Notes under the pieces: generated by a model | Told to the model about the DNA's origin: nothing | What the model saw: only the letters and a program-made list of their open reading frames with translations | Database searches by the model: none | NCBI GenBank assembly: GCA_018673915.1 | Contig: JABHBK010000001.1 | Coordinates: 68,069-132,068, forward strand | Length of the DNA: 64,000 nt | Direction: 5' to 3' | DNA from: Nitrospina sp. | Lineage (GTDB): Bacteria > Nitrospinota > Nitrospinia > Nitrospinales > VA-1 | Shown here: piece by piece, positions 5,584 to 52,515 of the stretch | How positions within the stretch are numbered: the first letter of the stretch is position 1 | How the letters are laid out: each line of letters begins with the position of its first letter | Position numbers and translations under genes: made by a program

Positions 5584-6306
5584 TTATGTTCTTCCATATT
5601 CTAAAACGAACAAACCGCAAGAAATGACTCCGTATATCATGAAAATCTGAAGCAGAAAACGTGAAGAGGTAACCGGTTGAACTTCTTTACCGTTGACTTT
5701 GAAGGTGAAGGAAAACGCCTGCTTTTCTATGTGGTCATCTTTTTCAAGCATATCAAATAACTCAGCCTTAATCCGTTTTTTCTTTTCTTTCCCTTCAGAG
5801 GTTTTGACGATTACCTTGTAAGAAATATTTTGAAACAGGCCCGTATCTATCTTCTTTTCCAACACGGTTCCATCCATCACTGAAAAAAACTTAAAAAATA
5901 TCAGAGCACCCAAAAGGGAAACCATGAGAGTTTTCCCGTTGAGAAAAGTGGTGCGCAGCGTTTCTTTGTTGTTTTGTCTTTGCTGGTGTCCCATGAAGAA
6001 GGTATGCATGGCTGGAGTGAAAATATCCCATTGAAAATAAGGGTAGCCGGAGTAATGCGGACGTGTGTACCAAGGTTGGGCTTGCTCTTTGTGTTGAAAG
6101 TCATCATAAGCCCGTCTGCGCTTCAGGTCTGACAATACGGAGTAAGCTTCGGCGATTCGGGAAAATCGTTCCTGGTCGACAGGGCTGGGATTCTGAATCC
6201 GGTCAGGATGATATTGCTTCGCCTGTTCTCGATAGGCGGATTTGATTTCCAGATATCCCGCATTTTCTGTCACGCCGAGTAAGGCATAGTAATCAGGATT
6301 GCTCAT
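5584..6306 (-). CDS. J-domain (DnaJ-like) membrane protein
   Basis: N-terminal DYYALLGV...IKSAYREQAKQYHPDR with an HPD motif. Hydrophobic helices sit mid-protein and at the C-terminus. There is a 4-nt overlap with the upstream DedA gene. Confidence 0.8.
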   Translation of the reverse strand: MSNPDYYALLGVTENAGYLEIKSAYREQAKQYHPDRIQNPSPVDQERFSRIAEAYSVLSDLKRRRAYDDFQHKEQAQPWYTRPHYSGYPYFQWDIFTPAMHTFFMGHQQRQNNKETLRTTFLNGKTLMVSLLGALIFFKFFSVMDGTVLEKKIDTGLFQNISYKVIVKTSEGKEKKKRIKAELFDMLEKDDHIEKQAFSFTFKVNGKEVQPVTSSRFLLQIFMIYGVISCGLFVLEYGRT

Positions 6307-9320: not shown

Positions 9321-9374
9321 TGACAAAACTAAACTCGATGGAATAATTAGACACTTTCCTTCCTCTAACTTGAT

Positions 9375-10277
9375 ATGCAAAATTATCCACGTCTTTTTAT
9401 AAAAGCAGGTCTTATCTATGCATTGATTGGGGCTCTGCTTGGCATTGTCATTTCGATCAATCCATCGCTTTCGCATCCGCTTCGGTTTATTCATATTCAT
9501 CTGAACCTGCTTGGGTTCATGACCATGATGGTGGCGGGTGTCGCCTACCACGTGCTGCCCCGGTTCAGCGCAAGAACCCTACCTTGGCCAGGAGGAATGA
9601 AGGTCCAGTTTATTTTGCAGAATACAGGGCTCATCGGAATGGTTGCCGTGCAGGGATTCGGCAGTTGGCGAGGCGGAGAGCATCAGCCCATTTTTGTTTT
9701 CTTTGCTTTACTCGCCGGAGTGGCATTTGGAATCATGTTTTACAATCTCTATTTTGTCCTCTCCCCGAGCGCAGAAGAAGAGGCGCCCCCTACAAAAATT
9801 ACTGGCGATATGAAAGTGGGGATCGTACTCGACCAATTCCCCTCCTCCTTGACTATTTTTATTGAGAATGGATTCCAGGCTCTGGCTAATCCCACAGCAC
9901 GGCAAACCTTTGCCAAAATGGTGTCCATAGATAAAGCCTGCGAAAAACATGGTGTGTCTTCTGCAGAGTTTCTGGAAAAACTTAATCAGGAAATTTTTAG
10001 CAAAGAAACATCTTCGGCATCCGGAGAAACTGACTCAGCAGGGCAGGAAATTCAGCGTGGGGAAATGTGTGAGGGAGATACCCGGGTGGGGAGTTTGATT
10101 AAAACTTATCTCACGACCAAGTCTGTTTTCGAAAAGCATTATGGCGAAGGCTGTTTCTCTTGTCCCGGTCAGGTCTATGAGACCGTGGCACAAACCGCCA
10201 GCATGCATAATGTCGATCTGGAACTAATTTTGGCGGAAATCAATATCGAAATAGAGAAAGAATTGAAAGCTTCATGA
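9375..10277 (+). CDS. 4-TM protein with haem-copper-oxidase helix-X-like His motif fused to two DUF1858 domains
   Basis: TM2 reads HIHLNLLGFMTMMVAGVAYHVLP. The C-terminal half has DMKVGIVLDQFP...MVSIDKACEKHGV and DTRVGSLIKTY...CFSCPGQVYETVAQTASMHNVDL, which are ScdA_N/DUF1858-like. Confidence 0.6.
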   Translation: MQNYPRLFIKAGLIYALIGALLGIVISINPSLSHPLRFIHIHLNLLGFMTMMVAGVAYHVLPRFSARTLPWPGGMKVQFILQNTGLIGMVAVQGFGSWRGGEHQPIFVFFALLAGVAFGIMFYNLYFVLSPSAEEEAPPTKITGDMKVGIVLDQFPSSLTIFIENGFQALANPTARQTFAKMVSIDKACEKHGVSSAEFLEKLNQEIFSKETSSASGETDSAGQEIQRGEMCEGDTRVGSLIKTYLTTKSVFEKHYGEGCFSCPGQVYETVAQTASMHNVDLELILAEINIEIEKELKAS

Positions 10278-10281
10278 CATT

Positions 10282-10596
10282 GTGAATTCAAAAAACGAAT
10301 TCAAAGAATATGTTCTGGATCAGCTTTGTCGGTTGAATGGTGTGGAATGCAAACATATGTTTGGCGGATTCGGCCTGTATTGCAACGGGGTGTTTTTCGC
10401 CATCATCGCTGATGGCTGTGTTTATTTTAAAACGAATGCCACCACCGTTGACGCTTTTAAGGCAAGAGGCATGCAACCTTTCAAACCCTCCGCTAAACAG
10501 ACCTTGAAAAACTATTACGAAGTCCCCGCCGAAATCCTCGAAGATGAAGATCAACTTGCCGAATGGGCAAAAAGAGCTTCGGCAAGTGACAAGTAG
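10282..10596 (+). CDS. TfoX N-terminal domain protein
   Basis: KHMFGGFGLYCNGVFFAIIADGCVYFK fits the TfoX_N pattern MFGG.GLY..G..FA.I.D..LYFK. Confidence 0.7.
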   Translation: MNSKNEFKEYVLDQLCRLNGVECKHMFGGFGLYCNGVFFAIIADGCVYFKTNATTVDAFKARGMQPFKPSAKQTLKNYYEVPAEILEDEDQLAEWAKRASASDK

Positions 10597-10682
10597 ATTT
10601 ATTAAAAAATGAGCTATTGTCTTTGAGCTACCAGATAAAAAGACTAAAATTTAATTTTGAAAAAGTAAGTTTGTAGTATCGA

Positions 10683-11117
10683 ATGAGCTATAAATATTTA
10701 CTAAAAGGAGAGGAGATGGACGACCCAAAAAAAGAATTTGAGCGCCTGAGACTTCTGTTTGACTATACAAAGTTCCATATAGGGATGTACACAACGATTA
10801 TTGGTATTTCTATAGGTGTGATTAAGATTGGCCCTGGTAATATAGAGATTAATATTTCTATTTTTGTCGCTGCGATTATATTATTTCTAATTGCTGGTTT
10901 AGCGGGGGGAGTGATAGCGAGTAGCACTCCAGAGTACACAAGTTACACTGAATTTTTGAAGGCAGAAATATTTCCCGGTAAAAGGGGATGGCTTAAGTTT
11001 ACGGCGAAAAGCTGGATTCGTAAAGAGCATAGGTGTTTCTGGATTGCTGTGGCTCTGCTATTACTATCTTTTTGGAATCCATTATTCTTGAGATCGCTGG
11101 ATATTATTTGTAAATAA
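10683..11117 (+). CDS. hypothetical membrane protein
   Basis: 144-aa ORF with 3-4 hydrophobic helices. I do not recognise the family. Confidence 0.45.
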   Translation: MSYKYLLKGEEMDDPKKEFERLRLLFDYTKFHIGMYTTIIGISIGVIKIGPGNIEINISIFVAAIILFLIAGLAGGVIASSTPEYTSYTEFLKAEIFPGKRGWLKFTAKSWIRKEHRCFWIAVALLLLSFWNPLFLRSLDIICK

Positions 11118-33737: not shown

Positions 33738-34250
33738 TTGTTTAACAAAATGAAAATAACAACCCTGTTATTGCTTGTCCTGCTGGGGGGGACCGTCAAT
33801 CCGGTTTTTTCTGCCACGGACAAAACCGAGGACATTCGTAAACTGCTTAAAGTTTCCGGTATTCTGGACCAATTGGATTATATGCAGGACTCTCTCCTGA
33901 ACAATGTCTCAATGATGGTGACGGGGAGCTTTCCCAAAGTTCCCGAGGCGTTCTGGGGGGATTTTAATAAATTGATGGGAAAGAAAGAAATGGATGAATT
34001 GGTAGAGCGGGTGATTCCGGTTTATGAAAAGCATATGTCGCCCGAGACAGTCAAAAAACTCATCACCATGTTTGAGACTCCGTTTTGGAATGAGTGGAAA
34101 GAACAAATGCCCAAGATCAGCCGCGAAGCAGGGCAGATTGGCAGTGAATGGGGCAGGGAGATCACCCAGTCCAAAGCATTCAATGAAAAACTGGAAGGCC
34201 TCATCAAAAAATACGAACTGGAAAAATTAAATAAGGCTGAACAAAAATAA
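33738..34250 (+). CDS. secreted DUF2059-like protein
   Basis: Signal peptide and a helical repeat. Family assignment is from weak recollection. Confidence 0.45.
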   Translation: MFNKMKITTLLLLVLLGGTVNPVFSATDKTEDIRKLLKVSGILDQLDYMQDSLLNNVSMMVTGSFPKVPEAFWGDFNKLMGKKEMDELVERVIPVYEKHMSPETVKKLITMFETPFWNEWKEQMPKISREAGQIGSEWGREITQSKAFNEKLEGLIKKYELEKLNKAEQK

Positions 34251-34283
34251 AAACCGGAGATAGGCCTAAGCCTACCCCCGGTT
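34243..34283 (-). terminator. Rho-independent terminator ending the sigma-54 peptide/cupredoxin/cytochrome c operon
   Basis: The minus strand reads AACCGG-ggg-TAGGC-ttag-GCCTA-tct-CCGGTT, then TTTATTTTTG. It lies 14 nt after the cytochrome c stop. Confidence 0.7.
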
Positions 34284-34297
34284 CCAAACCCCCACCT

Positions 34298-34726
34298 TTA
34301 CTTGACCCAGCTTTGGCGGATGTATTTCACGACATCCCAGATCTCTTTATCCTTCATAGATTTTTTGTGAGCGACCATCCCGGTTCCGGGGGAACCATTT
34401 TTGATGATCCAGAACATTTGTCCGGCCGAAACATCTTTCATGGTATCGCTACAAGTGAAGTTGCGAGGATTAGGTTTTAACGCTTTACCCAGTTTGCCCA
34501 TGCCATCGCCCTTTTTTCCGTGACACATTTTACAGGCCAAAGGTTTTGCTTTTTTGGCGTAGATCTTTTTGCCATTTTCCGCGTTCGCCTTGGCAGTTTT
34601 ATCCATCGATGCGATATTCGAAGGGGCCGATTTAGTTTTCCTTGGTTGTGGACAGTTGCTGGCCGCCCAGGTGGAGGTGGTGAAGAACAGGATGCTTATT
34701 GCAGTTATTAGTAAGGTTTTTTTCAT
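34298..34726 (-). CDS. class-I mono-haem cytochrome c
   Basis: Internal ATG MKKTLLITAISILFF (signal peptide). Haem motif CKMCHG, with a distal Met candidate in PGTGMVAH. Confidence 0.8.
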   Translation of the reverse strand: MKKTLLITAISILFFTTSTWAASNCPQPRKTKSAPSNIASMDKTAKANAENGKKIYAKKAKPLACKMCHGKKGDGMGKLGKALKPNPRNFTCSDTMKDVSAGQMFWIIKNGSPGTGMVAHKKSMKDKEIWDVVKYIRQSWVK

Positions 34727-34847
34727 TTTGGTTTCTCCTCTTTCTTGTTGATGAATACGTTTCTCAAGTTTTAATCCCAACCCCCTCGATCCCCCTTGCC
34801 TAGGGGAGGCTAATTTACCCATGACAAGGAGGATAGGGAGGCCGAAA

Positions 34848-35648
34848 TTACTTCGCTGTCAATTCAAAGTTAGCGTTGATTTTTGCTCCTTCTGCTACCG
34901 TGACTTCCTGAGTCATTTCCCCTACATAAGGATGCCATGCGGTGACTTTGTAAGTACCGGCAGGAATATTATCCAAGGTGAATGAGTCTGTGCTCACGGT
35001 GTAGTAAGGATTCCAAACGATTCGCGCATCTGCTTCCATGTAGTTATGCTGGTCGCATTGCAGGAAAAAATGGGAATCCTTTTTAGCTTTTAATCGCTTG
35101 AGGGACTTGGTGACATCGGCAATAGACCCTTTAGAAGGAAGCGGTTTATTAAACAGCGTTTTACGATTCGCTCCTTTAATGGAATAACCGTGTGGGTTGT
35201 GCAGAGTGTTCTCGTCTTGATTGGTCACTTGCACCAAGCCTTCTTTCATACCTTTTGGTGTTTTACGGATGACCGTTACCTTGGGGAAAATATCACATTG
35301 CCGGAAATCGAAATTCACAGTTTTTTCAGACCAGGCTTTGCCTTTGCTGATATTTTCGATCAGGATCACTGCGTTGTGAAGTTTTCCATCTTTAACCTCT
35401 ACTTTCTGCCTGGGTCGGATACCTCCCTCTTGTGTATCGGGGTGGGTGGCGCAGAACTCGGCATTTTTGCCTTTGCTCAAATCTTCCAGGATAGGCGCGG
35501 GGACGTTTCCTTTGAACATAACGCTTCCTGTAATAGACCCCCCATTGGAAACCTTTGCTTCTTCATAGCTGGCTTTCTTTGCGTGAACATTACCCGCCAG
35601 GGCCAGTGTGATTACGGTAGTGACTGCTATTAAGTTTAATTTTTTCAT
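34848..35648 (-). CDS. periplasmic cupredoxin-like (type-1 Cu) protein flanked by carboxypeptidase-regulatory-like segments
   Basis: Signal peptide present. VTNQDENTLHNPHGY plus the FFLQCDQHNYM loop (H ... C-x2-H-x2-M). GSITGSV... at the N-terminus and FTLDNIPAGTYKVTAW...ANFEL at the C-terminus. Confidence 0.6.
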   Translation of the reverse strand: MKKLNLIAVTTVITLALAGNVHAKKASYEEAKVSNGGSITGSVMFKGNVPAPILEDLSKGKNAEFCATHPDTQEGGIRPRQKVEVKDGKLHNAVILIENISKGKAWSEKTVNFDFRQCDIFPKVTVIRKTPKGMKEGLVQVTNQDENTLHNPHGYSIKGANRKTLFNKPLPSKGSIADVTKSLKRLKAKKDSHFFLQCDQHNYMEADARIVWNPYYTVSTDSFTLDNIPAGTYKVTAWHPYVGEMTQEVTVAEGAKINANFELTAK

Positions 35649-35686
35649 GATGATTCTCCTTCCTCTTGTTGTTGTTCCTGCTTGTC

Positions 35687-35869
35687 TTAATTAAATTTTG
35701 GGGTGGGGCCGGGAAAAGGAGGTCCATCCCGGCCCCAACTGCAGACAACGGGGAAGGCTCCGTTGCCCGCACTTGCACTCAGAAAAATTTGAATGCAAGT
35801 CGTTCCCTCGGGGCATGGTCCGGCACCGCTAGGTTGTGCCAGGGTTCCCTTTGAGATTAAGTTTTTCAT
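35687..35869 (-). CDS. 60-aa Cys/Gly/Pro-rich ORF, first cistron after a sigma-54 promoter
   Basis: ATG preceded by GAAAGGAAGG. Translation is MKNLISKGTLAQPSGAGPCPEGTTCIQIFLSASAGNGAFPVVCSWGRDGPPFPGPTPKFN. The region is GC-rich and could instead be a structured leader. Confidence 0.4.
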   Translation of the reverse strand: MKNLISKGTLAQPSGAGPCPEGTTCIQIFLSASAGNGAFPVVCSWGRDGPPFPGPTPKFN

Positions 35870-35907
35870 GGCTTGCCTTCCTTTCAAGTATTTCTAATCT
35901 ATTAGAG

Positions 35908-35923
35908 AGCAAGGCTCATGCCG
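35908..35923 (-). promoter_or_regulatory. sigma-54 promoter
   Basis: The minus strand reads CGGCAT-gagcc-TTGCT (GG-N10-GC spacing correct), about 40 nt upstream of the small-ORF ATG. Confidence 0.65.
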
Positions 35924-36069
35924 AAAAAGATGGAGAAAAAATAAAGTCTTTAAGCGGTTATTTAACAAGAGGTTTAGAGAAAGCTATTGCGGAAGGGAAT
36001 GGGGAGTCGATTCGGAAAATGCCATATCGGGACGAAGCCGTCCCATTATGGGATTGTGTCAGAGGGGAA

Positions 36070-37428
36070 CTAGGTTAACTGGTATTTTTTTAGCATGCGG
36101 TAAAACGTGCTGCGGCTGATTCCCAAAGCTTTCGCCGCACCGGGGATATTTCCGTCGGTTTGTTCCAAGGCCTGGTTTAGAGTTTGCTTGACCACTTCAT
36201 GGTAGGGAGTGAGACCCTCGGTTTTTGCATTTATCTTTTCATCAGTAGGAGCTGAAGAGTCGAAGACGTCTTCGGGTAAACAGTCGGCGTCCAGAGTGTC
36301 GTAGGAGGTGACGATCATGGCCTGATAAAGAGTGTTTTCGAGTTGGCGGATGTTTCCGGGCCAGGAATATTCCTGCAAAATCTGCATGGCTTCATCACTG
36401 ACTGACAGGATTTCTTTGCCAATATCTTTTTGATGTTTTTTAAGGAAATGGCTGCAAAGCGGAGGAATGTCTTCTACTCTATCCCGCAAGGCGGAGACTT
36501 CTATGGGAAAGACGGCCAGCCGATAATAAAGGTCTTCTCGAAAGGCTTCTTTTTCAATCAATGTTTTAAGATTTTTGTTGGTCGCACAGATTACCCGGGT
36601 ATCAACCTGTATTTTTTGGGTGTCTCCCACGCGCTCTAAATATTTTTCCTGCAAAAAGCGCAACAATTTGGCCTGGGTGGAGAGGCTCATTTCCGCCACC
36701 TCATCGAGAAACAGGGTGCCTCCATCTGCCAGCTCCAGTTTTCCGGGTCGAGATTCGGTGGCGCCGGTGAAAGCCCCTTTTTTATGGCCGAACAATTCGC
36801 TTTCCTGTAGTGATTCGGGAATGGCTCCGCAATTGATATCTACAAAAGGTCCTTTGGCGTAGGTGCTGTTACGATGAACGGCGCGGGCAATGAGTTCTTT
36901 TCCGGTTCCGGTTTCTCCGAGAATGAGTACGCTGGCTTTGGTGGGTGCGACCTGATGAACTTTTTTTAGTGTTTCATTTAACGCATTACTATTGCCTATG
37001 ATTTCATCTTTTCCGGATAGACGGTCCACTTCGCTTTGCAGGTGGTGGACTTTGCGGACCAGGTTTCTTTGTTCAAAGGCTTTATCCAGACAGGTAAAAA
37101 GACGGGTTTCATCAACAGGTTTTAAAAGATAGTCATAAGCACCTAGCTTGATCACTTCGACAGCGGTTTCGACTTTGTCAACGCTGGTGAGCATGACCAC
37201 AGGTATATCTGGGTGGGTGGCTTTGATTTGTTTTAAAGTTTCCTGGCCGCTCAGGCCGGGCATCATCACATCGAGGAGGATCAGAGAAGGATTGTCCTCC
37301 AGTGCGTCAAGCAAGGCTTTTCCGCTTTCGAATTTTTGCACTGCATAGCCCTGGTCTTCCAAAAGCGCCTTCATCAGGCCTCTCAGCGGGGAATCATCAT
37401 CGACTACGAATATCAACTCAGTGGCCAT
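36070..37428 (-). CDS. sigma-54-dependent response regulator (NtrC family)
   Basis: REC domain (VVDDD, LILLDVMMPG, KP). AAA+ domain with GETGTGKE, GAFTGA and LFLDEV. C-terminal Fis-type HTH. Confidence 0.93.
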   Translation of the reverse strand: MATELIFVVDDDSPLRGLMKALLEDQGYAVQKFESGKALLDALEDNPSLILLDVMMPGLSGQETLKQIKATHPDIPVVMLTSVDKVETAVEVIKLGAYDYLLKPVDETRLFTCLDKAFEQRNLVRKVHHLQSEVDRLSGKDEIIGNSNALNETLKKVHQVAPTKASVLILGETGTGKELIARAVHRNSTYAKGPFVDINCGAIPESLQESELFGHKKGAFTGATESRPGKLELADGGTLFLDEVAEMSLSTQAKLLRFLQEKYLERVGDTQKIQVDTRVICATNKNLKTLIEKEAFREDLYYRLAVFPIEVSALRDRVEDIPPLCSHFLKKHQKDIGKEILSVSDEAMQILQEYSWPGNIRQLENTLYQAMIVTSYDTLDADCLPEDVFDSSAPTDEKINAKTEGLTPYHEVVKQTLNQALEQTDGNIPGAAKALGISRSTFYRMLKKYQLT

Positions 37429-37548: not shown

Positions 37549-39297
37549 ATGGGATCGTTGGCAAGTCAAACTAGAGGGGTTTTGTTGGCAGGATTGGTTT
37601 TGGCTATTGTGAGTTGGGGTATTGCTCGCGATCGTGCTCAGAAAACCTGGTTCAATGAATTGGAGCAGGAGGTTCTGGAAGACACTCTTATTCTGACTGG
37701 AGAACTGGAAGTAGTGAAGAGGGAATTGGGAGGCATAGTGTCCCTTTATAATTCTTCAGAATTTGTAAGTCGGGAAGAGTTTGGAGCTTATGTCCAGCCT
37801 CTTTTAAGGAACCATCCCTTCATTCAGGCCTTTGAGTGGATTCCGCTTATTGACCACTCGGAAAGGGAAGGGTTTGAAGGCATTACCCGTTCTATGGGAT
37901 ATGTAGAGTTTCATGTCTTTTCATCGTCAGGTCCCTCCGAGGCAAAGCAGGAATATTTTCCGGTACATTATGTAGAACCTATTCCCGGCAATGAGCAGAC
38001 GCTTGGCTTTGATCTGGCTTCTGATCCGAAATTGTTAGAACTCACCAATACCGCGAGAGATACGGGAAGAGAAGTTGCGGCTTCACGGTTTGGGCCGGTA
38101 CCCAACGCCCGATCACAATTGGATATGATAATTCTTGCTCCTTATTATAATGGAGGAAAGAACCCAGAACGAACTGAAGAAAGACGGGAGCATTTAAAAG
38201 GTTTTGTGCTTGGTATTTATCGAGTTGGGGACATGATTGATCAAATGCTCAATCCTTATATTCCCAATGGAATGAATTTAACTGTTTACGAGGAAGGTGA
38301 TCTGGTTCCAGAAAATCTACTTTATGGTAATTCTTTAAAAAATCCAGCCATGAAGATCACCAACGTTGTTACTGTTTCCAACCGTCGCTGGTTTTTGGTT
38401 TGGCAGGTTACTGAAGAGTTTCGCGGTGGGCCTCAAACATTAAATGCGTTTTGGGTGGGGCTTGCCATTTTATCAGGAGCCCTGTTTCTATCTATTATCA
38501 TCGAGATAATGGCATCGCGAACTCGTGTTGTGGAGAGTGAGGTTCGGGTTCGTACGGAAGAATTGACTCAGGCAAACCAGAAGCTGGTTGAGTTGAACGA
38601 TTTAAAAAATAAATTTCTTGGAATGGCATCGCACGATCTCAGGAATCCTCTTGCTTCGATTCGTGGTTATTCGAAATTTCTTTTAGATAAAGGAATGCAA
38701 GTCAAGGAGGATACACGACAGGAATTTTTAACAAGCATTAAAAATGTCAGTGGAAATATGTTGGAGTTGATCAGCAACCTTTTGGATATCTCGGTGATTG
38801 AGAGTGGGCAGTTGAAACTGAACCCCGAAAAAGCATCCATAAAAAAACTCGCTGAAGAGAAAATCCATCTGCAACAGATTTTGGCGGATAAAAAAAATAT
38901 TGTCCTCCATGCGGATTTGGAAGAGGTTCCGGAATTTTATTTTGACGCAAACCGTATGGGGCAGGTGATGGATAATCTTCTCAGTAATGCGGTTAAGTAT
39001 TCACCGCCGGATAAAGAGGTTTTTGTCAAGCTGGAGTCGACGGGAGAAATCATGACTGTCAGCGTAAAGGATGACGGGCCAGGGATTTCCCCAGATGAGC
39101 AGGGGCAGCTATTCCAGCATTTTCAAAAATTAAGCGCCCGACCCACGGGGGGTGAAAGCAGTTCTGGCTTGGGGTTGGCTATTGCTCAGAGAATTGTGGA
39201 AGAACATCAAGGTAGCATTGGTGTGGATAGCCAACTCGGTCAGGGGGCTACGTTTTACTTTTCTTTGCCCACTGGGAATCTGGAAACTACGGAATAA
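37549..39297 (+). CDS. CHASE-domain sensor histidine kinase
   Basis: The periplasmic region has FIQAFEWIP...FPVHYVEP...LGFDLASDP (CHASE-like). A TM helix follows, then H-box ASHDLRNPL and HATPase NAVKYS/DDGPGI/GLGLAI. Confidence 0.85.
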   Translation: MGSLASQTRGVLLAGLVLAIVSWGIARDRAQKTWFNELEQEVLEDTLILTGELEVVKRELGGIVSLYNSSEFVSREEFGAYVQPLLRNHPFIQAFEWIPLIDHSEREGFEGITRSMGYVEFHVFSSSGPSEAKQEYFPVHYVEPIPGNEQTLGFDLASDPKLLELTNTARDTGREVAASRFGPVPNARSQLDMIILAPYYNGGKNPERTEERREHLKGFVLGIYRVGDMIDQMLNPYIPNGMNLTVYEEGDLVPENLLYGNSLKNPAMKITNVVTVSNRRWFLVWQVTEEFRGGPQTLNAFWVGLAILSGALFLSIIIEIMASRTRVVESEVRVRTEELTQANQKLVELNDLKNKFLGMASHDLRNPLASIRGYSKFLLDKGMQVKEDTRQEFLTSIKNVSGNMLELISNLLDISVIESGQLKLNPEKASIKKLAEEKIHLQQILADKKNIVLHADLEEVPEFYFDANRMGQVMDNLLSNAVKYSPPDKEVFVKLESTGEIMTVSVKDDGPGISPDEQGQLFQHFQKLSARPTGGESSSGLGLAIAQRIVEEHQGSIGVDSQLGQGATFYFSLPTGNLETTE

Positions 39298-44476: not shown

Positions 44477-47113
44477 TTAATGGGTTAAACTCAAAACCTC
44501 TTGGTGGTCATCAAAAAATGCTGGGTCCATTTCACGAACAATGCCCTCCATGTCAATCAAGTCCGTGACCAAATCTTGAACCACTACCGTTCCCAGGATT
44601 CCTTTCCGTGTAAGAGATCTTTTTACAGTTATATTTTCTTCGACAATATCAAGAATTTGATCGACCACCAGGGCTACACTTTTATTTTGGTGCGTGTATA
44701 TGATCGTTTGAATCGTTGCATTCTTTTTGACCTGTTGGCTGGAATCGAAAAAATTTAAAAGATCAATAAGAGGTATGATTTCTCCTCGGTATTGAATGAC
44801 GTCATTGTTTCCTGAGCGTTCAATGTCCGAACATTTGAATTCCTCCAGGCGTGCGACAGTAGAAAGCGGGATGGAGTTTCGTCCTTTTTCTCCAACTCTA
44901 AAGATCAATAAGGTTTCCTTGTCAGTAACCTCATTGTCTGCCAGGCTTTTATCTTTCGAATCTGCCATGGCTTGCTCCTGGTTTTCACGGACTACCTGTG
45001 CCTTTTGAGCCAGACCCATTATGTCAAGGATCAGTGCCACGCTTCCGTCTCCCATAATGGTTGCTCCAGAAAAACCTGCGATTCCCTTCAATTGGTTTCC
45101 CAAGGGTTTCACTACAATTTCCTCCGCATCACAGATCTGCTCAACGACGAGGCCAAACTGTCTTTCATTGGCGTTTAAAACAACAATATTGGTCGCTGTT
45201 TGAGCACTTTCATTTTTTGAAATTCCCAGTTCAGAATTCAAATTTATGATGGGCAAAAGGTTACCTCGAAGACGATATACCGGGGTCCCTTGAATCGTTT
45301 CGATCGCTTTTTCAGACTGCTCCTCATTCAAACGGACCAGCTCCAGCAGATTCACTTGAGGTATTGCATACTGGTTGCCTCCTGTTGAAACGATCAAAGC
45401 TGGAATAATTGCCAGGGTTAAAGGAATTCTTACTTTCAGGGTGGTGCCTTCCCCTTGACAGGTATGAATATCAACCGTTCCACCAATTTTATCAATATTG
45501 GTTTTAACCACATCCATCCCGACACCACGACCGGATACATTTGTAACTGCTTTCGCTGTAGAAAGCCCAGGCATGAAAATAAGGTTCACCAATTCGCGCT
45601 CGCCCATTTTTGCAGCCTGCTCGCTGGTGATCAAACCTTTGCTCAAGGCTTTTTCTTTGAGGATAGAGGGGTCAATTCCACCGCCATCATCTGTGATTTC
45701 AATAATGACCTGTCCTCCCTCATGGTAGGATTTCAGCTGTAAAACGCCTTCCTCAGGTTTACCTAGGTCGCGTCTTACATCGGGGATTTCTATCCCATGG
45801 TCTACTGAGTTACGTATAATATGTGTTAGCGGATCCTTAATCGCCTCGATCAAGGTTTTGTCCAGCTCCGTTTCTTTTCCTTCCGTTTCAAGGCGAATTT
45901 TCTTGCCGCATTCCATGGACAAATCACGAACTATTCTGGGGAACTTGCTCCAAATTCCGCCTATAGGCTGCATCCGCGTTTTCATCACTCCTTCCTGAAG
46001 ATCAGAAGTCACCAAATTTAAATGCTGGGAAGTTTCCATGAAGCTGGCATCATGGTGAGAGGAACTAAACTGCAGAACCTGATTTCTAGCTAAGACCAGT
46101 TCTCCAACCAGGTTCATCAGCTTATCAAGCAACTGGACATCAACGCGAATACTGGAATCCTCCAGCTTGCGCTCTTCCTTTTTTGCCGTACCTGAGCCAG
46201 AAGATTTTTTAACTTTTCCATTGGATGGGGTTACTTCAGGTTTTCCGTTCCCGGGCGTAAGACCTGACACTTCAGGAGCCTCTTTAGTTAGGGCTATTTC
46301 TTTTTTGGAGGGTTCTGATTTTGTTCGATTCAGAACATCATTTTTAACAGAAAGCGCTATGCGGGCCGCCTCCCCAATTAAATCACCGGGAACTTTCAAT
46401 TCCATCAAGGTCGTTCCAAAGTCTTCTATGACCGCATCAAAATGGCTTTCGTTCAGGCCTTTCTCTTCTACAAGATATTTGTGCGTTTCCCTGAGTCCTC
46501 TTCCGTCATAATTACTGGGGCCGCCAAACGCGAAAGCCAAAAACTCTTTTTGCTTATTCAGAAGGTGGTTCAAGTCTGCGCCTTCAAAAAAATGACTGAT
46601 ACGGTCGTCATTTAGAACTTTTGCGTAAAACAGGTTGACCGTTGCATCGACCGCTTCTTGTCCACCCATTCTCTCAAAAAGGGATGCAGGCTTTGCACCA
46701 TTCCCATTTCCTGAGGCTGGTTTTCCAGTCGCATCTGCCCGCAGGCGTTCCATGGACTCAATTAATCCAGAAAAATTATGATCTCCTTCATTTCCCTGTT
46801 TAGTTACAGATGTGAATATTCTGCGTATTGAATCTGACAGTTCATGCAGGATATTCATGATTTCTGGAGTTGGTGCTACCTTGCCCTGCTGAAGCGCATC
46901 TAGAAAGTTTTCACCAGAGTGGGTTAGAGATTCGAGCTTGGTGTAACCAATTAATCCGCAGCTACCCTTGATGTTATGGATAGTTCGAAAAATACCTTCT
47001 AATAATTCCGGGGAATGGGGAGTTTCTTCCAGGCTAATCAGGTCCTGATCAAACCGATCCAGGTTCTCACGACTCTCGGCCACAAACTCCAAGATCATTT
47101 CATTGGCTTGCAT
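44477..47113 (-). CDS. cheA: CheA-type histidine kinase with embedded truncated-globin domain and two CheW-like domains
   Basis: ATG at 47113 follows AGGAAGGA. Hpt domain (FRTIHNIKGS), globin-like insert, dimerisation helix, HATPase (NSVDHGIE, DDGGGI, GRGVGMDVV), then two CheW-like modules. Confidence 0.92.
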   Translation of the reverse strand: MQANEMILEFVAESRENLDRFDQDLISLEETPHSPELLEGIFRTIHNIKGSCGLIGYTKLESLTHSGENFLDALQQGKVAPTPEIMNILHELSDSIRRIFTSVTKQGNEGDHNFSGLIESMERLRADATGKPASGNGNGAKPASLFERMGGQEAVDATVNLFYAKVLNDDRISHFFEGADLNHLLNKQKEFLAFAFGGPSNYDGRGLRETHKYLVEEKGLNESHFDAVIEDFGTTLMELKVPGDLIGEAARIALSVKNDVLNRTKSEPSKKEIALTKEAPEVSGLTPGNGKPEVTPSNGKVKKSSGSGTAKKEERKLEDSSIRVDVQLLDKLMNLVGELVLARNQVLQFSSSHHDASFMETSQHLNLVTSDLQEGVMKTRMQPIGGIWSKFPRIVRDLSMECGKKIRLETEGKETELDKTLIEAIKDPLTHIIRNSVDHGIEIPDVRRDLGKPEEGVLQLKSYHEGGQVIIEITDDGGGIDPSILKEKALSKGLITSEQAAKMGERELVNLIFMPGLSTAKAVTNVSGRGVGMDVVKTNIDKIGGTVDIHTCQGEGTTLKVRIPLTLAIIPALIVSTGGNQYAIPQVNLLELVRLNEEQSEKAIETIQGTPVYRLRGNLLPIINLNSELGISKNESAQTATNIVVLNANERQFGLVVEQICDAEEIVVKPLGNQLKGIAGFSGATIMGDGSVALILDIMGLAQKAQVVRENQEQAMADSKDKSLADNEVTDKETLLIFRVGEKGRNSIPLSTVARLEEFKCSDIERSGNNDVIQYRGEIIPLIDLLNFFDSSQQVKKNATIQTIIYTHQNKSVALVVDQILDIVEENITVKRSLTRKGILGTVVVQDLVTDLIDMEGIVREMDPAFFDDHQEVLSLTH
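46328..46687 (-). other. group-I truncated haemoglobin (Bac_globin-like) domain inside CheA
   Basis: SLFERMGGQEAVDATVNLFYAKVLNDDRISHFFEGADLNHLLNKQKEFLAFAFGGPSNYDGRGLRETHKYL...HFDAV, colinear with M. tuberculosis HbN as I recall it. Confidence 0.75.
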
Positions 47114-47189
47114 GATTGATTCCTTCCTTATTTCTTTAGTATTCACGGGCCTTACCTCCAGATAAAGTTCCCGAAACTGTTGGGAGTTT

Positions 47190-47227
47190 ATTGAAGGGCT
47201 TCGGGTTTTTAACCGAAGCCCTTCAAT
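47190..47227 (-). other. perfect 15-bp intercistronic hairpin between mcp and cheA
   Basis: ATTGAAGGGCTTCGG, an 8-nt loop, then CCGAAGCCCTTCAAT. No U-run on either strand. Confidence 0.8.
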
Positions 47228-47242
47228 GCAAATACCGACTGT

Positions 47243-49264
47243 TTAGCCATTAAACTCGCTGACAATATTTTGCATTTCTGCCGCCAGTTTAGACAATTCA
47301 CTCGCTGCTGTTTGAGTATCCGTAGCACCTTCGGTGGTGCTATGAGCCGCCTGAGCCACACCGGCAATATTCTCGGCAATCTCTTGAGATCCGCGGGAGG
47401 CATCGGTGACATTACGGGTGATCTCGTTGGTGGTGGCCGACTGCTCCTCCACCGCACTGGCAATGGTGTTGGAGATATCGCTGATCTGGCCAATAACCCC
47501 GCTGATCTCACCAATAGCAGTTACAGCACTCTGAGTATCCGTTTGTATGGCGGAGATTTTACTGCTGATTTCCTCGGTAGCCTTGGCAGTCTGATTAGCC
47601 AGTTCCTTGACCTCGTTGGCGACTACGGCGAATCCTTTACCTGCTTCACCAGCACGTGCTGCTTCAATGGTGGCATTCAAGGCCAATAGATTGGTCTGTT
47701 CCGCAATCGAGGTGATGACTTTGATGACTTGGCCAATCTCAGCCGAACTGACTCCCAACTGGGTCACTGTCTTGTTGGTGGTCTCGGCCAACTGAACCGC
47801 ATCGCTGGTGACTTTGGTAGCCTGGTTGGCGTTATGAGCAATCTCTTTTATGCTTGCGCTCATTTCTTCCGAACCGGTAGCTACCGTTTGAATGTTCTGG
47901 TTCACCTGATCGGAGGCGGCAGAGACGACATTGGACTGAGCCGAAGTCTCTTCCGCATTTCCGGCCATTTGCTGGCTGGTGGCGGTCAACTCCTCTGAGG
48001 CTCCGGCAAGGGTCTGGGCTTTTTCCGCAACATTGTTAAGAACCTTCTGCATGTTTTCGTTCTGTTCTTTTTCGCGTTTTTCAGCCGCCAGTTTTTCGGT
48101 AATCACTTCCCAGGTAACCATGGGCCCGAGGTAATTTTTATCCTTATCATAGATAGCACTGACCAGAAGATCGAGGACCTCAGGACCCACTTGTATTTCT
48201 GCACGATGTGGCAGGTTATTGGGATCAGATAGAATTTTGCGCTGATGTGCAGGGTTCTTGTGGAAAACATCTATGGATGAACCCATTAATTGGTCCACTC
48301 GAATAGGAAGATGTTGTTCAATGGTTTTTAATGTTGTAACGGATGCTGGGTTGACGTAGGTGATTTGAAAGGTTTCTGCATCAGCAAAAAGCACGTTCAC
48401 TGGGGCATTTTCCATCATGGAGTTAACTCGGGCGACTTCATTCTCGGTCTTTAACTTTTGAGTTATAACGTCCCAAGTGACCATCGGTCCCAGGTAGTTC
48501 TTGTTTTCATCATAAATAGCGCTGACCAGAAGATCGAGGATCTCAGGCCCAACTTGTATTTCTGTACGATGCGGCAGGTTATTGGGATCAGAAAGAAGTT
48601 TTCTTTGGTGCGCGGGGTTCTTGTGAAAAACATCTATGCATTGTCCCATCAATTTATCCACAGGAATGGGTAAATATTGTTCAATGGTTTTTAACGTCTT
48701 TATGGAAGCAGGGTTGACATAGGTGATTTCAAAACTATCTTTATCGGCATATATGACGTTAACCGGGGCGTTCTCCATCATTGAGTTGACCCTATCCATA
48801 GCCCGTTTCGTGATATTGATTTTGGTGACATCTTCCCAGTTGACGACATAACCGGAAATCATACCATTGGAATCGTTGATTGAGTTTATGGTAGCGGCAA
48901 GCGTCACCCCACCAAAACCAAACTCAGCCGTGTGCGGCAAAGCAGAAGGATTGCGTAAAATTCTTTCAATCTTTTGCGGGTCTTTATGAAACCGGTGGAT
49001 GGAACCACCGACGATATCGTTCAGGTTAACCCCAAATGCTTCATTAATCTGGTCCTTGATGGTTTCCAAGGTGTTCACAGCACTTTGATTGGCGTAAACG
49101 AGAGTGAAATTTGTATCCGCCACCAGCACATTTGCTTGAACATTGTCCAGGCAGGAAAGCAGACCTCCCGAAGATTTCATTAAACCATTACTGCCATTTC
49201 CTCCACCAAACAGGCCGAGAAATCCAGATTTACTTGCAGATGATTGGGTGGCGAGCATATTCAT
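47243..49264 (-). CDS. soluble methyl-accepting chemotaxis protein with three N-terminal PAS domains
   Basis: No TM helix. Three PAS modules each carry FHK(N/D)P...W(D/E)(D/V). The C-terminal MCP signalling domain has ([29 protein letters not shown]). GGAGGA Shine-Dalgarno sequence. Confidence 0.92.
48092..48793 (-). repeat. tandem 363-bp duplication encoding PAS2 and PAS3 of the MCP
   Basis: GACCAGAAGATCGAGGA occurs at 48161 and 48524, an offset of 363. The protein copies differ at 20 of 113 aligned residues by my count. Confidence 0.9.
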
Positions 49265-49408: not shown

Positions 49409-49424
49409 AGCAAAAGGTATGCCA
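49409..49424 (-). promoter_or_regulatory. sigma-54 promoter of the mcp-cheA-cheW operon
   Basis: The minus strand reads TGGCAT-acctt-TTGCT, about 145 nt upstream of the mcp ATG. Confidence 0.7.
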
Positions 49425-49733: not shown

Positions 49734-51107
49734 TTAAATAAAATATTTACGTTTCAGGCCTAGAGCCTTGAGGCGATTGTAAAGAGTTTGCCGGGAAAGG
49801 CCCAAATTGGTATAAGTTTTTTTGATATCCCCTTTATTGCGAGTCAGTTCTTGAGAGATCAGACTTTTTTCTATAGCGGCTAATTGGTTATTCAATCCGG
49901 TAGGAGGATTCTTAAGTGTTTGTTGAATAGAAACCTGAATATCATTTTCTGCGCTTGGGGTGCTGGTATCGGGAAGGCCCAGGACGAATTTGTCGGCTTC
50001 ATTTTTAAGTTCACGAACGTTTCCCTCCCACTTGCGAGACTGGAGAGCAATAATAAGCTCTGGAGAAGGGACCGGCGGTGTTTTCTGATTGTAGCGTGAA
50101 CAGGCATCCAATATTAGATGATGAAACAATAATGGGATATCTTCAACCCGCTCGCGCAGAGGGGGGAGAGCGATTTGAACCACATTGAGGCGATAATACA
50201 AATCTTCCCGGAACAGGTTTTGTTCACTGGCTAATTTTAGATCTGTTTTTGTTGCGGCAATAATACGGATATCCAGAGGTATGAGTTCGTTGGAACCGAC
50301 TCGCTCAATCGCTTTTTCTTGAATCACACGGAGAAGCTTTACCTGAAGGTGCAGGGGCATACTTTCAATTTCATCCAGGAAAACGGTTCCTTTGTTGGAG
50401 TGCTCAAATTTTCCGATCCTTTTACGGTCTGCGCCGGTAAAGGCCCCTGCTTCATGACCGAACAACTCACTCTCAATAATATTTTCAGGCATAGCCCCGC
50501 AATTGATAGCTGTAAATTTATGATTGCTTCTTTTGCTGGACTGATGAATATTTTGAGCGATGAGGTCTTTTCCCGTTCCCGTTTCTCCAAAAATAAGTAT
50601 GTCGGCATCGGCATCGGCGATATTTGAAATAACCTGACGAAGACGTTCGATGGAAGGGGACTTCCCTACAATCATATTCTTAGTGTCGTTTTGGTGGTTG
50701 ATTTTGGATCGGAGGTTCCTCACTTCCATAACAAGGCGGCGCTTTTCCTTTGCCCGTTTAATGGCATCTATGAAGGTTTCGGTAGCAAAAGGTTTTTCTA
50801 AAAATTCATAAGCTCCGTTTTGGATCGCCTGGACTGCCATGGAGATATTCCCCTGGCCTGTAATGAGGATGACGGGGATTTCCGGGTCTACTTCTTTGAC
50901 TTTTTCCATCAAGGTCAGGCCATTCATTTTTGGCATTATTACATCGCTCACCAATACGCCTGGCCAATCTGGTGAAATGGAAGCCAGAGCATCTTGTGCG
51001 GAATCAAAATCTTCCACTTCAAAGTTTTTATTTTGAAGTTCTCTTTTGAGGGATAAGCGGACCACTTTTTCGTCATCAACTAAAAAAACTTTTTCGCTGG
51101 TACTCAT
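49734..51107 (-). CDS. sigma-54-dependent response regulator (NtrC family)
   Basis: REC domain (FLVDDE, VLVSDVIMPKMNG, KP). AAA+ domain with GETGTGKD, GAFTGA and VFLDEI. C-terminal HTH. Confidence 0.93.
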   Translation of the reverse strand: MSTSEKVFLVDDEKVVRLSLKRELQNKNFEVEDFDSAQDALASISPDWPGVLVSDVIMPKMNGLTLMEKVKEVDPEIPVILITGQGNISMAVQAIQNGAYEFLEKPFATETFIDAIKRAKEKRRLVMEVRNLRSKINHQNDTKNMIVGKSPSIERLRQVISNIADADADILIFGETGTGKDLIAQNIHQSSKRSNHKFTAINCGAMPENIIESELFGHEAGAFTGADRKRIGKFEHSNKGTVFLDEIESMPLHLQVKLLRVIQEKAIERVGSNELIPLDIRIIAATKTDLKLASEQNLFREDLYYRLNVVQIALPPLRERVEDIPLLFHHLILDACSRYNQKTPPVPSPELIIALQSRKWEGNVRELKNEADKFVLGLPDTSTPSAENDIQVSIQQTLKNPPTGLNNQLAAIEKSLISQELTRNKGDIKKTYTNLGLSRQTLYNRLKALGLKRKYFI

Positions 51108-51148
51108 ATTTATTATTCCCAAAAATATTGTTCTTAATAATTAGACCT

Positions 51149-52393
51149 TTAAATTGATTCTTCTCCATTTGAATTAATGGGAAGGGTGATTATGGATTGA
51201 GTCCCTCGTCCCTCGGTGCTTCGGACTTTTAAATCTCCGCCATGTTTTTTAATGATTCCGTAACTGACAGAAAGCCCCAGGCCTGTGCCTTTAACCTCTC
51301 CCTTAGTCGTAAAGAAAGGGTCAAAAATTTTTTCCATGTGTTGCTGTTTTATGCCCTGCCCGATATCCTCAATTTCTACTTCAACGTTTGAATTGAGAAC
51401 TTTGGTGCGAATAGTTATTGCTCCACCCTTTTTGCAGGCCTCATTTGAGTTTTGCAGGAGGTTTAAAATGACCTGTTTGAACTGGTCTTCCACCACTCTG
51501 ACATCGGGTAAACACTCAACGTACTCCTTGGTCAACTGTATATTCTCTTTGTTGAAATCATTCTTCTTGAGCATGAGCATGTCATCAATAGCATTATGAA
51601 GGTTCAAGGGTTGAGGTGTTCCCGAAGTAGGGCGGTAAAAGTCTTTAAGCTGATGAGCGAGGTTCATGACGCGATTGCTCTCATTGATTGAAAGCTCCAC
51701 CAGTTCTTTCAGAGAGTCTTCCATGGTGGTTCCCTGCTGAACCTGTTCAAGGGTATTGCGAATTCCCATCAGAGGGTTGTTGAATTCATGAGCGATACTT
51801 GCGGCTAATTGACCGAGAGCCGAAAGTTTTTCGACGTGCAAAAGTTGCTGATTAACATTTTGCAACTCTTTTTCTGATCGTTCCCGTTCGGCTATTTCTT
51901 TTTTAAGTTGTTGGTTAGCCAGTTTTAGATCGGCGGTTCTTTCAAGCACTCTCTGCTCAACAAAATCTTTTTGAGCTCCAAGGTTTTTATTCAGCAACCG
52001 CACTTCAAGAATATTTTGAATTCTGCAAAGCACCTCCGATAGATCCAGAGGTTTAGACAAGAAATCCCGAGCGCCGAACTGCAGTGCCTTGAGGCGAACC
52101 GATGGGTCAGATTCTGCAGTTAATACCAGAATGGGCGCATAAGAGTCATCATTTTCAATTTGCTTGATTTGCTCAATGACCTGAAAGCCATCCAAATGTG
52201 GCATTCTCAAATCTAGCAAAACAAGGTCTGGTTTAAGTTCCTGGTATAGAGATGCCGCTTTTCTGGAGTCTGTTGTGCTGGTGATGCAGCTATAATTTGC
52301 CTGTTTTAATGCCGACTCCAGGACAATGATGTTTGAGCTCTCATCATCTACCATAAGGATTTTGGCTTTTAAAATTTCAGCTTTATCTATCAT
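51149..52393 (-). CDS. hybrid protein: N-terminal receiver domain plus histidine kinase
   Basis: REC domain (ILMVDDE, LVLLDLRMPHLDG, KP), a coiled coil, H-box IAHEFNNPL, and HATPase NSNEAC/DIGQGI/GTGLGLS. Confidence 0.9.
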   Translation of the reverse strand: MIDKAEILKAKILMVDDESSNIIVLESALKQANYSCITSTTDSRKAASLYQELKPDLVLLDLRMPHLDGFQVIEQIKQIENDDSYAPILVLTAESDPSVRLKALQFGARDFLSKPLDLSEVLCRIQNILEVRLLNKNLGAQKDFVEQRVLERTADLKLANQQLKKEIAERERSEKELQNVNQQLLHVEKLSALGQLAASIAHEFNNPLMGIRNTLEQVQQGTTMEDSLKELVELSINESNRVMNLAHQLKDFYRPTSGTPQPLNLHNAIDDMLMLKKNDFNKENIQLTKEYVECLPDVRVVEDQFKQVILNLLQNSNEACKKGGAITIRTKVLNSNVEVEIEDIGQGIKQQHMEKIFDPFFTTKGEVKGTGLGLSVSYGIIKKHGGDLKVRSTEGRGTQSIITLPINSNGEESI

Positions 52394-52499: not shown

Positions 52500-52515
52500 A
52501 GCAAGATAAGTGCCA
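52500..52515 (-). promoter_or_regulatory. sigma-54 promoter of the REC-HK / NtrC-type regulator operon
   Basis: The minus strand reads TGGCAC-ttatc-TTGCT (consensus -24 and -12), about 105 nt upstream of the ATG at 52393. Confidence 0.75.

Follow-up and report, generated by a model that had tools for sequence, protein, structure and literature searches.

We describe here a two-gene operon with a structured RNA leader in an uncultured Nitrospina. The DNA analysed, hereafter called the window, is a stretch of 64,000 nucleotides (nt) of contig JABHBK010000001.1 (assembly GCA_018673915.1, positions 68,069 to 132,068 of the forward strand), and all coordinates below count from its first letter. 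The operon lies on the minus strand, in the order sigma-54 promoter, structured leader, gene of a 266-amino-acid (aa) protein, gene of a cytochrome c and terminator. Operon and sigma-54 control are real and of an ordinary kind; the new item of the locus is the leader, a conserved two-hairpin RNA that is absent from Rfam. The best explanation of the data is a sigma-54-driven copper/haem electron-transfer operon whose two-hairpin leader sequesters the ribosome-binding site of its first gene, which encodes a predicted cupredoxin. We hold this explanation with somewhat better than even confidence.

An earlier, sequence-only reading of the window had listed the promoter, a 60-aa open reading frame (ORF), the exported 266-aa protein, the mono-haem cytochrome c, the terminator, an NtrC-type regulator gene and a divergent CHASE kinase gene, and all of them were found where that reading had placed them. 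Its operon of three cistrons did not hold: two cistrons follow a structured leader.

A conserved two-hairpin leader RNA

Counted from the promoter-inferred start, the mRNA leader is about 250 nt long. Two adjacent hairpins, joined by a 4-nt linker, form its core. Hairpin 1 (35741-35770, minus strand) has a stem of 11 base pairs (bp) and the loop AGCCUUCC(C), and hairpin 2 (35705-35736, minus strand) has a GC-rich 10-bp stem and the loop UGGACCUCCUUU, which is similar to an anti-Shine-Dalgarno sequence. Both loops are pyrimidine-rich (GCCUUCCCC in loop 1 and ACCUCCUUU in loop 2). The folding energy of the leader core is -46.7 kcal/mol (z = -5.6), and the whole leader has a z of -3.5.

Base pairing was evaluated by covariation, first in a set of 16 orthologs and finally in 38 instances of a covariance model, 25 of which are distinct; unless stated otherwise, counts of leaders refer to these 25. 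In the 16 orthologs 92.6% of cells were paired, as against 30-56% when the partners were slid. The corresponding values for the distinct sequences were 91.4% and 30-54%. Twelve of the 21 base pairs change on both sides (50 cells), and in a shuffle test none of 500 shuffles attained the observed value on any of five measures. Changes on both sides were seen in 8 of the 11 pairs of hairpin 1. Hairpin 2, in which 99% of cells are paired and 4 pairs carry compensatory changes, was independently recovered by RNAalifold. In the distant orthologs L018, L040 and L041 (L numbers are our labels for loci), a hairpin with a CCUCCU or UCUCCU loop is built on unrelated stems. These data show that the conserved block is a structured cis-regulatory RNA: its pairs are compensatory, its signal is strand-specific and its position in the 5' untranslated region is fixed.

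G-U pairs occur on the sense strand only and the reverse-strand model scores at most 22 bits, which identifies the element as an RNA of the operon strand. Together with the lack of a second copy of the leader in the window, the same two observations rule out a DNA-level element such as a repetitive extragenic palindromic sequence or an operator. An intrinsic terminator or attenuator was also considered for hairpin 2 and ruled out, since no T run follows it. With Rfam 15, no match at E ≤ 1 was obtained for the leader in the window, nor in four orthologous loci. Among the matches listed by a scan of metagenomes for CCGGGA-N4-8-CCTCCT-N0-3-TCCCGG, a pattern of hairpin 2, the RNA model classed every locus except L119 as unrelated.

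All 38 instances of the covariance model precede this same operon and lie close to its start codon; the rest of the window and about 1.7 Mb of other, related loci yielded none. This distribution and the lack of a U-tract terminator after hairpin 2 speak against a trans-acting small RNA, either the leader itself or a product of its processing, whose C-rich loops and tail would serve as seeds for pairing with ribosome-binding sites on other mRNAs; nor was any target identified. Such a role would make use of three exposed C/U-rich stretches (loop 1, loop 2 and a YCCCC tail 3' of hairpin 2), would suit an element that lies directly downstream of an NtrC-type regulator gene and under a sigma-54 promoter, and would account for loops that are more conserved than a role in cis strictly requires. 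Presumably the seeds would then act as in RsaE/RoxS, and expression would depend on sigma-54 and NtrC as in Qrr or NrsZ. These RNAs share with the leader the C-rich motifs exposed in hairpin loops and the sigma-54 promoter beside an NtrC-type regulator gene. Unlike them, the leader has no terminator, is always fused to the same mRNA and has no similarity to an Rfam family. We consider a trans-acting RNA quite improbable.

Two further hairpins were noticed in the 5' half of the leader, at 35783-35812 (ACUUGCAUUC...GAGUGCAAGU) and 35822-35840 (GGCAC...GUGCC), both on the minus strand. They are common to L001, with one change of the compensatory type (U-G to U-A); other clades carry other sequence at this place.

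The open reading frame across the leader

The 60-aa ORF (35687-35869, minus strand) starts with an ATG that is preceded by GAAAGGAAGG, contains three Cys codons and runs across both hairpins. Its apparent Shine-Dalgarno sequence, as read from the DNA, is GAAAGGAAGGC (35875-35885, minus strand), which contains the motif GGAAGGC. The sequence-only reading had proposed that the product might be a Cu-handling peptide, a precursor of a ribosomally synthesized and post-translationally modified peptide (RiPP) or a regulatory leader. The first clue against a peptide was that N-terminal extensions annotated in other genomes translate the same conserved DNA in differing frames. All three sense-strand frames are in fact open across the leader, where overlapping ORFs of 62, 66 and 41 aa can be read, so that the existence of the 60-aa ORF carries no weight and is at chance level.

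Conservation of the frame was then compared between loci. The start, that is Shine-Dalgarno sequence plus ATG, is present in about 13 of the 25 leaders and absent from 11. The start-less group consists of the short leaders L003, L008, L024 and L198, the whole L010-L014/L184/L196 clade, and L018. Where a start codon exists, the conserved block is read in all three frames. The frame used in the window is interrupted by a stop in 6 of the 16 orthologs, namely by a TGA that arises from variable bases of the hairpin-2 loop. The stop varies in position, from -41 nt to no stop at all: among the loci with a start codon there are several, about half, in which the ORF is open through into the cupredoxin gene, and translation would bury the signal peptide of the cupredoxin.

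Substitutions give the same picture. Between the window and L001, its closest locus, the ratio of non-synonymous to synonymous substitution rates (dN/dS) is 1.79 for the ORF, compared with 0.05 for the cupredoxin and 0.05 for the cytochrome c gene. The 16 differences in the ORF are spread 4/7/5 over the codon positions; those in the cupredoxin gene are spread 13/4/70. The "synonymous" divergence of the ORF is 0.057 versus 0.39 in the adjoining genes, which indicates a constraint on nucleotides and not on amino acids.

In favour of a functional peptide, either copper chaperone-like or a RiPP precursor, are the presence of an ORF with a good Shine-Dalgarno sequence and three Cys, and three database proteins with 67-97% identity, which are its only relatives. 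The lost starts, shifting frames, in-frame stops and dN/dS rule this function out in our analysis, and we assign it a negligible probability. The product matches no Pfam or NCBIfam family, and the syntenic block holds only the kinase, the regulator, the cupredoxin, the cytochrome c, a DUF2059 protein and a pentapeptide-repeat protein, with no gene for maturation, a modifying enzyme or a transporter. The sequence-only reading had itself named loss of the frame in syntenic loci as grounds for giving up the peptide; the frame is not conserved there, and the block is a base-paired RNA. Its third guess, a regulatory leader, came nearest: the leader appears to regulate, and the regulator is an RNA structure, not a peptide. 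The ORF itself is an accident of an open GC-rich leader and not a conserved product.

The ORF could still matter as a regulatory upstream ORF, in which the act of translation counts: ribosomes would unwind the hairpins and couple to, or disturb, initiation on the cupredoxin gene. The strong Shine-Dalgarno sequence and the ATG stand at a fixed spacing, with an MKN(S/L) start, in the leaders that have them and also in the more distant L019 and L021, and the ORF may be translated in this way. Against this stand the start-less leaders, in which the hairpins are still kept, the shifting stop, and the N-terminally extended cupredoxin that would result in several genomes. In L010-L014, moreover, the Shine-Dalgarno-like element is kept without an ATG, which suggests a role in RNA pairing. 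A regulatory upstream ORF is a possible explanation, and one to which we give a clearly minor share.

The open leader also explains an annotation error. Public gene calls of 341-358 aa (P0004, P0007, P0012 and P0018; loci L002, L004, L201 and others) are cupredoxins to which about 75 aa have wrongly been added at the N-terminus, because gene callers read through the open RNA leader. The annotation of this region should be corrected both where the leader was called as a 60-aa "hypothetical protein" and where it was fused to such long cupredoxins. A different ORF of about 68 aa was observed between regulator and cupredoxin genes in the distant clade L015, L016, L028 and L033 (at about 5700-5950, upstream of the cupredoxin gene). 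By eye, this ORF (MFEE[IV]RIFNA.G.LK..V.TKESSKRFW...) looks conserved as a protein in the four loci, and it is unrelated to the 60-aa ORF of the window.

A proposed translational switch

Loop 2, ACCUCCUUU, resembles the 3' end of 16S rRNA, the anti-Shine-Dalgarno sequence. Because of this resemblance and because both loops are pyrimidine-rich, they should pair with sequences of the Shine-Dalgarno type. Two such sequences stand in cis. The first is the extended Shine-Dalgarno sequence of the cupredoxin gene, GAGGAAGGAG (35656-35665, minus strand), which is complementary to both loops; among 46 gene starts of the window, this ribosome-binding site ranks third for loop complementarity. The second is the 5' GGAAGGC, which is complementary to the hairpin-1 loop GCCUUCC (duplex of -13.8 kcal/mol) and has persisted in the long-leader clades, also in L010-L014, where it has no ATG behind it. 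Of the 21 leaders with GGAAGGC, 20 have GCCUUCCCC as loop 1, and the exception is a single variant (L201-type or equivalent). Two of the four short leaders that lack GGAAGGC have an altered loop 1.

Variation between clades offers further hints. Leaders of the L010-L014 clade (clade III) have the ribosome-binding site GGGGAAG, to which the CUUCCCC of loop 1 is exactly complementary. The only leaders to have lost the CCUCCU of loop 2, L013 and L184, belong to clade III, and their ribosome-binding site no longer contains GGAG. These hints and the loop complementarities in cis lead us to favour a switch of three elements: a 5' competitor, an anti-Shine-Dalgarno loop and the Shine-Dalgarno sequence. 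By pairing with the purine-rich ribosome-binding site in front of the cupredoxin gene, the loops would keep that gene untranslated. The 5' GGAAGGC would be a competing partner of loop 1, acting directly or through its occupation by a ribosome, for which it is the Shine-Dalgarno sequence of the upstream ORF. In this way the leader would add a post-transcriptional checkpoint to the transcriptional one. Promoter conservation, RNA covariation, the lack of protein-level selection on the ORF and the alignment of the copper-ligand motif to amicyanin were all computed here; from the leader data we infer that translation is controlled in cis by sequestration of the ribosome-binding site.

Several points weigh against this explanation. 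The transcription start was placed from the promoter alone. The alignment used for covariation (A4) was fitted to the model, which favours the structure, and its sequences are related. The loops sit on very stable stems, so that sequestration of the Shine-Dalgarno sequence would need pseudoknot-type pairing between loop and Shine-Dalgarno sequence over 40-70 nt. Loop complementarity is weakly diagnostic, because any Shine-Dalgarno sequence pairs with an anti-Shine-Dalgarno-like loop and the cupredoxin site is just the third of the 46. Covariation cannot probe the long-range pairings, because the loop and partner sequences are almost invariant. Finally, the short leaders L003, L008, L024 and L198 keep both hairpins and have no 5' GGAAGGC.

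Retention of both hairpins without a 5' competitor would also fit a different role, in which the two hairpins form the site of a protein or a small ligand, as in a riboswitch-like or protein-dependent leader, or stabilise the 5' end against RNases, the likeness to an anti-Shine-Dalgarno sequence being incidental. Strong conservation of structure and near-invariant loops are typical of specific recognition, and no known RNA family matches. However, two simple hairpins with a 4-nt linker lack the multi-helix junction or the conserved internal loops usual in aptamers, no candidate gene for an RNA-binding protein is linked in the syntenic block, and the clade-wise variation of the ribosome-binding site fits pairing better. 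We regard this role as unlikely, although less so than a trans-acting RNA.

Sequestration of the ribosome-binding site remains the explanation that we favour. A bolder version of it would place the leader in an undescribed class of regulatory RNA of the Nitrospinota, a three-part switch (GGAAGGC, loops that mimic 16S rRNA, ribosome-binding site) perhaps set by a ligand, a protein or initiation on the upstream ORF, and perhaps acting in trans, that gates translation of the carrier pair. This we put forward only tentatively.

The operon, its control and its relation to known systems

The sigma-54 (-24/-12) promoter, CGGCAT-N5-TTGCT (CGGCATGAGCCTTGCT; 35908-35923, minus strand), was assigned by pattern match and by conservation in orthologs. 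The pattern occurs 3 times in the window versus 0.33 expected, and YGGCAY-N5-TTGCT is retained in 25 of 25 distinct orthologous Nitrospinota leaders. Upstream lie two inverted repeats, candidate activator sites without strand: TCCCATAATGGGA (site 1, 36041-36053), about 131 nt 5' of the promoter, and TCCCGATATGGCA (site 2, 36020-36032), about 110 nt 5' of it and 21 bp from site 1. Of 23 leaders checked, nearly all have the pair of TCCCA-N3-TGGGA repeats at the same fixed places, about -131 and -110; considered singly, site 2 is present in most orthologs. Tandem enhancer sites at such a spacing are the usual layout for NtrC-type activators. An A/T-rich stretch with a conserved TGTTAA motif (35935-35975, minus strand) was also seen between repeats and promoter, and its location would allow an IHF-type bending site.

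The regulator gene (36070-37428, minus strand) stands directly upstream of the promoter in every syntenic locus. It encodes an NtrC-family sigma-54 activator with receiver, AAA+ sigma-54 interaction and Fis-type helix-turn-helix (HTH) domains (Pfam matches Sigma54_activat, 1e-72, Response_reg and HTH_8), which would bind both inverted repeats. All its NCBIfam scores are under the equivalog cut-offs, hence no named orthologue can be given. Divergent from the operon, on the plus strand (37549-39297), is the gene of a sensor histidine kinase with a periplasmic CHASE domain (Pfam CHASE 8e-40, HisKA and HATPase_c), syntenic in the 13 of 15 ortholog loci whose contigs extend that far (L002-L014). 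Presumably the kinase phosphorylates the regulator on some periplasmic signal, and the regulator then activates the sigma-54 promoter of the cupredoxin/cytochrome operon. Control of the operon by sigma-54 and the adjacent NtrC-type regulator, as the sequence-only reading had supposed, is strongly supported by the conserved promoter and by the paired upstream repeats at their fixed distance.

As far as contigs reach, the gene order divergent kinase, regulator, cupredoxin, cytochrome c, convergent DUF2059 gene and pentapeptide-repeat protein gene is conserved in 15 genome loci (L001-L014 and L024). In L001, from the Nitrospina metagenome-assembled genome isolate SI073_bin113, the 266-aa protein is 94% identical, and the relatives of the encoded proteins likewise assign the window to Nitrospina. 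The two other sigma-54-type promoters of the window are at 49409-49424 and 52500-52515 (both minus strand). One heads the genes of a hybrid kinase and a second NtrC-type activator (52393..49734), the other those of a PAS-MCP protein and of a CheA with a bacterial globin domain (49264..44477).

The first gene (34848-35648, minus strand) encodes an exported protein of 266 aa. Profile, alignment and structure model place an amicyanin-like cupredoxin domain at about residues 76-211, inside or next to a sandwich of the CarboxypepD_reg/fn3_3 type. The protein contains the motifs LHNPHGY and CDQHNYM, and the predicted copper ligands, from alignment to amicyanin, are His150 (35199-35201), Cys198 (35055-35057), His201 (35046-35048) and Met204 (35037-35039), all encoded on the minus strand. 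The family comprises 2495 representatives at E ≤ 1e-3, or 474 at the stricter E ≤ 1e-10, and its members are found mainly in Nitrospinota and Nitrospirota. In 88 relatives with 25-50% identity, Cys66, Cys118, His150, Cys198, His201, Met204, Trp238 and His239 are at least 90% conserved. Among PDB sequences, a family profile matched amicyanin (8e-6 and weaker) and, more strongly, the blue copper protein 5fc9 (8.6e-7). In hhalign, the broad alignment A3 matched amicyanin with a probability of 86% (E = 5e-6), with LHNPH on PHNVH and CDQHNYM on CTPHPFM, which pairs His150 with His53, Cys198 with Cys92, His201 with His95 and Met204 with Met98 of amicyanin. The broad alignment was needed for this result: with the shallow alignment A1 the probability was 0.3%.

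The AlphaFold model of the 266-aa protein is confident, with a predicted local distance difference test score (pLDDT) of 87. Full-length Foldseek searches of the PDB were blurred by the two-domain architecture; for a model of residues 76-211 alone (pLDDT 72) the top PDB folds are mostly cupredoxins. The E-values of these matches are weak (0.03-0.2), and the Pfam cupredoxin models Cupredoxin_1 and Copper-bind give no match at E ≤ 0.1 with the protein or the excised domain, two results that tell against a cupredoxin. Of the 88 distant relatives, only 4 and 2 match Cupredoxin_1 and Copper-bind, respectively. As the sequence-only reading had proposed from the motif spacing, an amicyanin-like type-1 copper cupredoxin with predicted copper binding is supported, by the four aligned ligands and the profile match to amicyanin in the PDB.

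Of the hidden Markov model searches that had been suggested, Cytochrom_C scored above its cut-off on the downstream gene product; Cupredoxin_1 gave no match and CarboxypepD_reg stayed below its cut-off. On the 266-aa protein, Pfam detects the C-terminal half of the CarboxypepD_reg/fn3_3 sandwich alone (residues 215-264; fn3_3 26.7 bits versus a cut-off of 24.4, CarboxypepD_reg 24.8 versus 32.3, on the C-terminal half of the model), and 87 of the 88 relatives match CarboxypepD_reg. The idea that the cupredoxin core sits between two halves of this sandwich fared less well than the copper motif: in a chimera of residues 33-56 and 212-266 the fn3_3 match extends to model positions 6-74, with a gain of about 1 bit. 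Insertion of the cupredoxin into a split sandwich is therefore weakly supported. An NxrC-type haem-b subunit was also considered and not supported, given that no EB_dh-type match was obtained and that the upstream gene in paralogous loci encodes a multicopper oxidase, not NxrB. In one Nitrospiria member of the family, P0172, QGDQNNYM replaces QCDQHNYM; the Cys and His ligands are lost and the protein is presumably copper-free.

The second gene (34298-34726, minus strand; likely true start at 34726, orthologs being called at 142 aa) encodes a mono-haem class I cytochrome c of 142 aa with a signal peptide. Its CKMCH (34520-34534) comprises residues 65-69, and PF00034 Cytochrom_C matches with 50.1 bits versus a cut-off of 21.3 (E 7e-13), in agreement with the earlier assignment; cytochrome 579 was rejected (49 bits versus a cut-off of 280). 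The gap between the two genes holds a long hairpin of about 28 bp (34773-34850, minus strand; fold of 34720-34860, -44.5 kcal/mol, z = -2.7), whose 5' arm is rich in C and U and whose 3' arm is rich in purines. It is probably lineage-specific, since orthologs differ in intergenic length (29 to 300 nt). Around the operon, Rfam gave chance matches alone (MIR815 and snoR113), on this hairpin. The operon ends, as had been noticed before, in an intrinsic terminator (34250-34285, minus strand) with a 16-bp stem, 8 of whose pairs are GC, followed by TTTTTATTTTT; it is common to the convergent DUF2059 gene.

Three arrangements of the family were found: regulator, leader, cupredoxin and cytochrome c, as in the window; cytochrome c followed by cupredoxin; and a 1637-aa multicopper oxidase followed by cupredoxin. 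The last was seen in L017 (921-5834), where the oxidase gene is directly upstream of a paralogue of the 266-aa protein with a terminator-like hairpin between them, and, judged from the similar C-terminal sequence of the upstream gene, in L026, L036-L039 and L042-L052. In L057, the gene of a 641-aa cytochrome bd-like membrane protein (9167-11092) lies 2.3 kb downstream of a Nitrospiria cupredoxin homologue. As the family is repeatedly paired with a cytochrome c or a multicopper oxidase, or stands near a cytochrome bd-like oxidase, the operon probably encodes a periplasmic electron-transfer pair, a type-1-copper cupredoxin and a mono-haem cytochrome c.

Nitrospina carries out most of the nitrite oxidation in the ocean, and the Nitrospinota are the main marine nitrite oxidisers. 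To our knowledge, almost nothing is known of how the electron carriers of Nitrospina are regulated. The copper/haem carrier pair of this locus appears to be inducible and to have a sensor system of its own, and the carrier comes from a family whose genes are also found beside those of the multicopper oxidase and bd-like oxidase in nitrite oxidisers. The leader is a candidate RNA for post-transcriptional control with good covariation support, and a three-part RNA switch, if true, would gate translation of the pair on top of the sigma-54/CHASE control.

Like ROSE and fourU thermometers and the translational riboswitches preQ1-II and SAM-II, in which the Shine-Dalgarno sequence is captured by a loop or pseudoknot, the leader has a pyrimidine-rich, anti-Shine-Dalgarno-like sequence upstream of, and complementary to, the ribosome-binding site, here with a possible competing 5' element. 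Unlike in the thermometers, this sequence lies in the loops of GC-rich hairpins of 10-11 bp and would not be melted by temperature; unlike in preQ1-II, SAM-II and other riboswitches, there are two plain hairpins, with no aptamer-like junction and no Rfam match. The control system shares with NtrBC, ZraSR, AtoSC and LuxO the receiver/AAA+/HTH architecture, the -24/-12 promoter and tandem palindromic sites about 110-130 bp upstream, and differs in the CHASE domain of its sensor and in its target, a copper/haem carrier pair.

With amicyanin and other single-domain blue copper proteins the 266-aa protein has in common the residue-for-residue alignment of His-Asn...Cys-x2-His-x2-Met, weak matches to the cupredoxin fold, a periplasmic location and a c-type cytochrome partner. 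In contrast to amicyanin, its cupredoxin part of about 135 residues is embedded in a larger protein with a CarboxypepD_reg/fn3_3-like sandwich, two extra Cys (66 and 118) and a WHP motif are conserved, and no methylamine dehydrogenase genes are near this locus. Lucker et al. 2013 (PMC3578206) reported cupredoxin-like copper-binding proteins from an NXR gene cluster that is conserved in Nitrospina, Nitrospira and Kuenenia. The 266-aa protein presumably belongs with these proteins: the phyla are the same, and its relatives adjoin the gene set listed in that paper, with a mono-haem cytochrome c and a giant multicopper oxidase and, for Nitrospiria, a cytochrome bd-like oxidase. Unlike them, this copy lies outside the NXR cluster and has its own CHASE-kinase/NtrC/sigma-54 control and RNA leader; within a group of proteins that had been noticed but never characterised, it is a new member with separate regulation.

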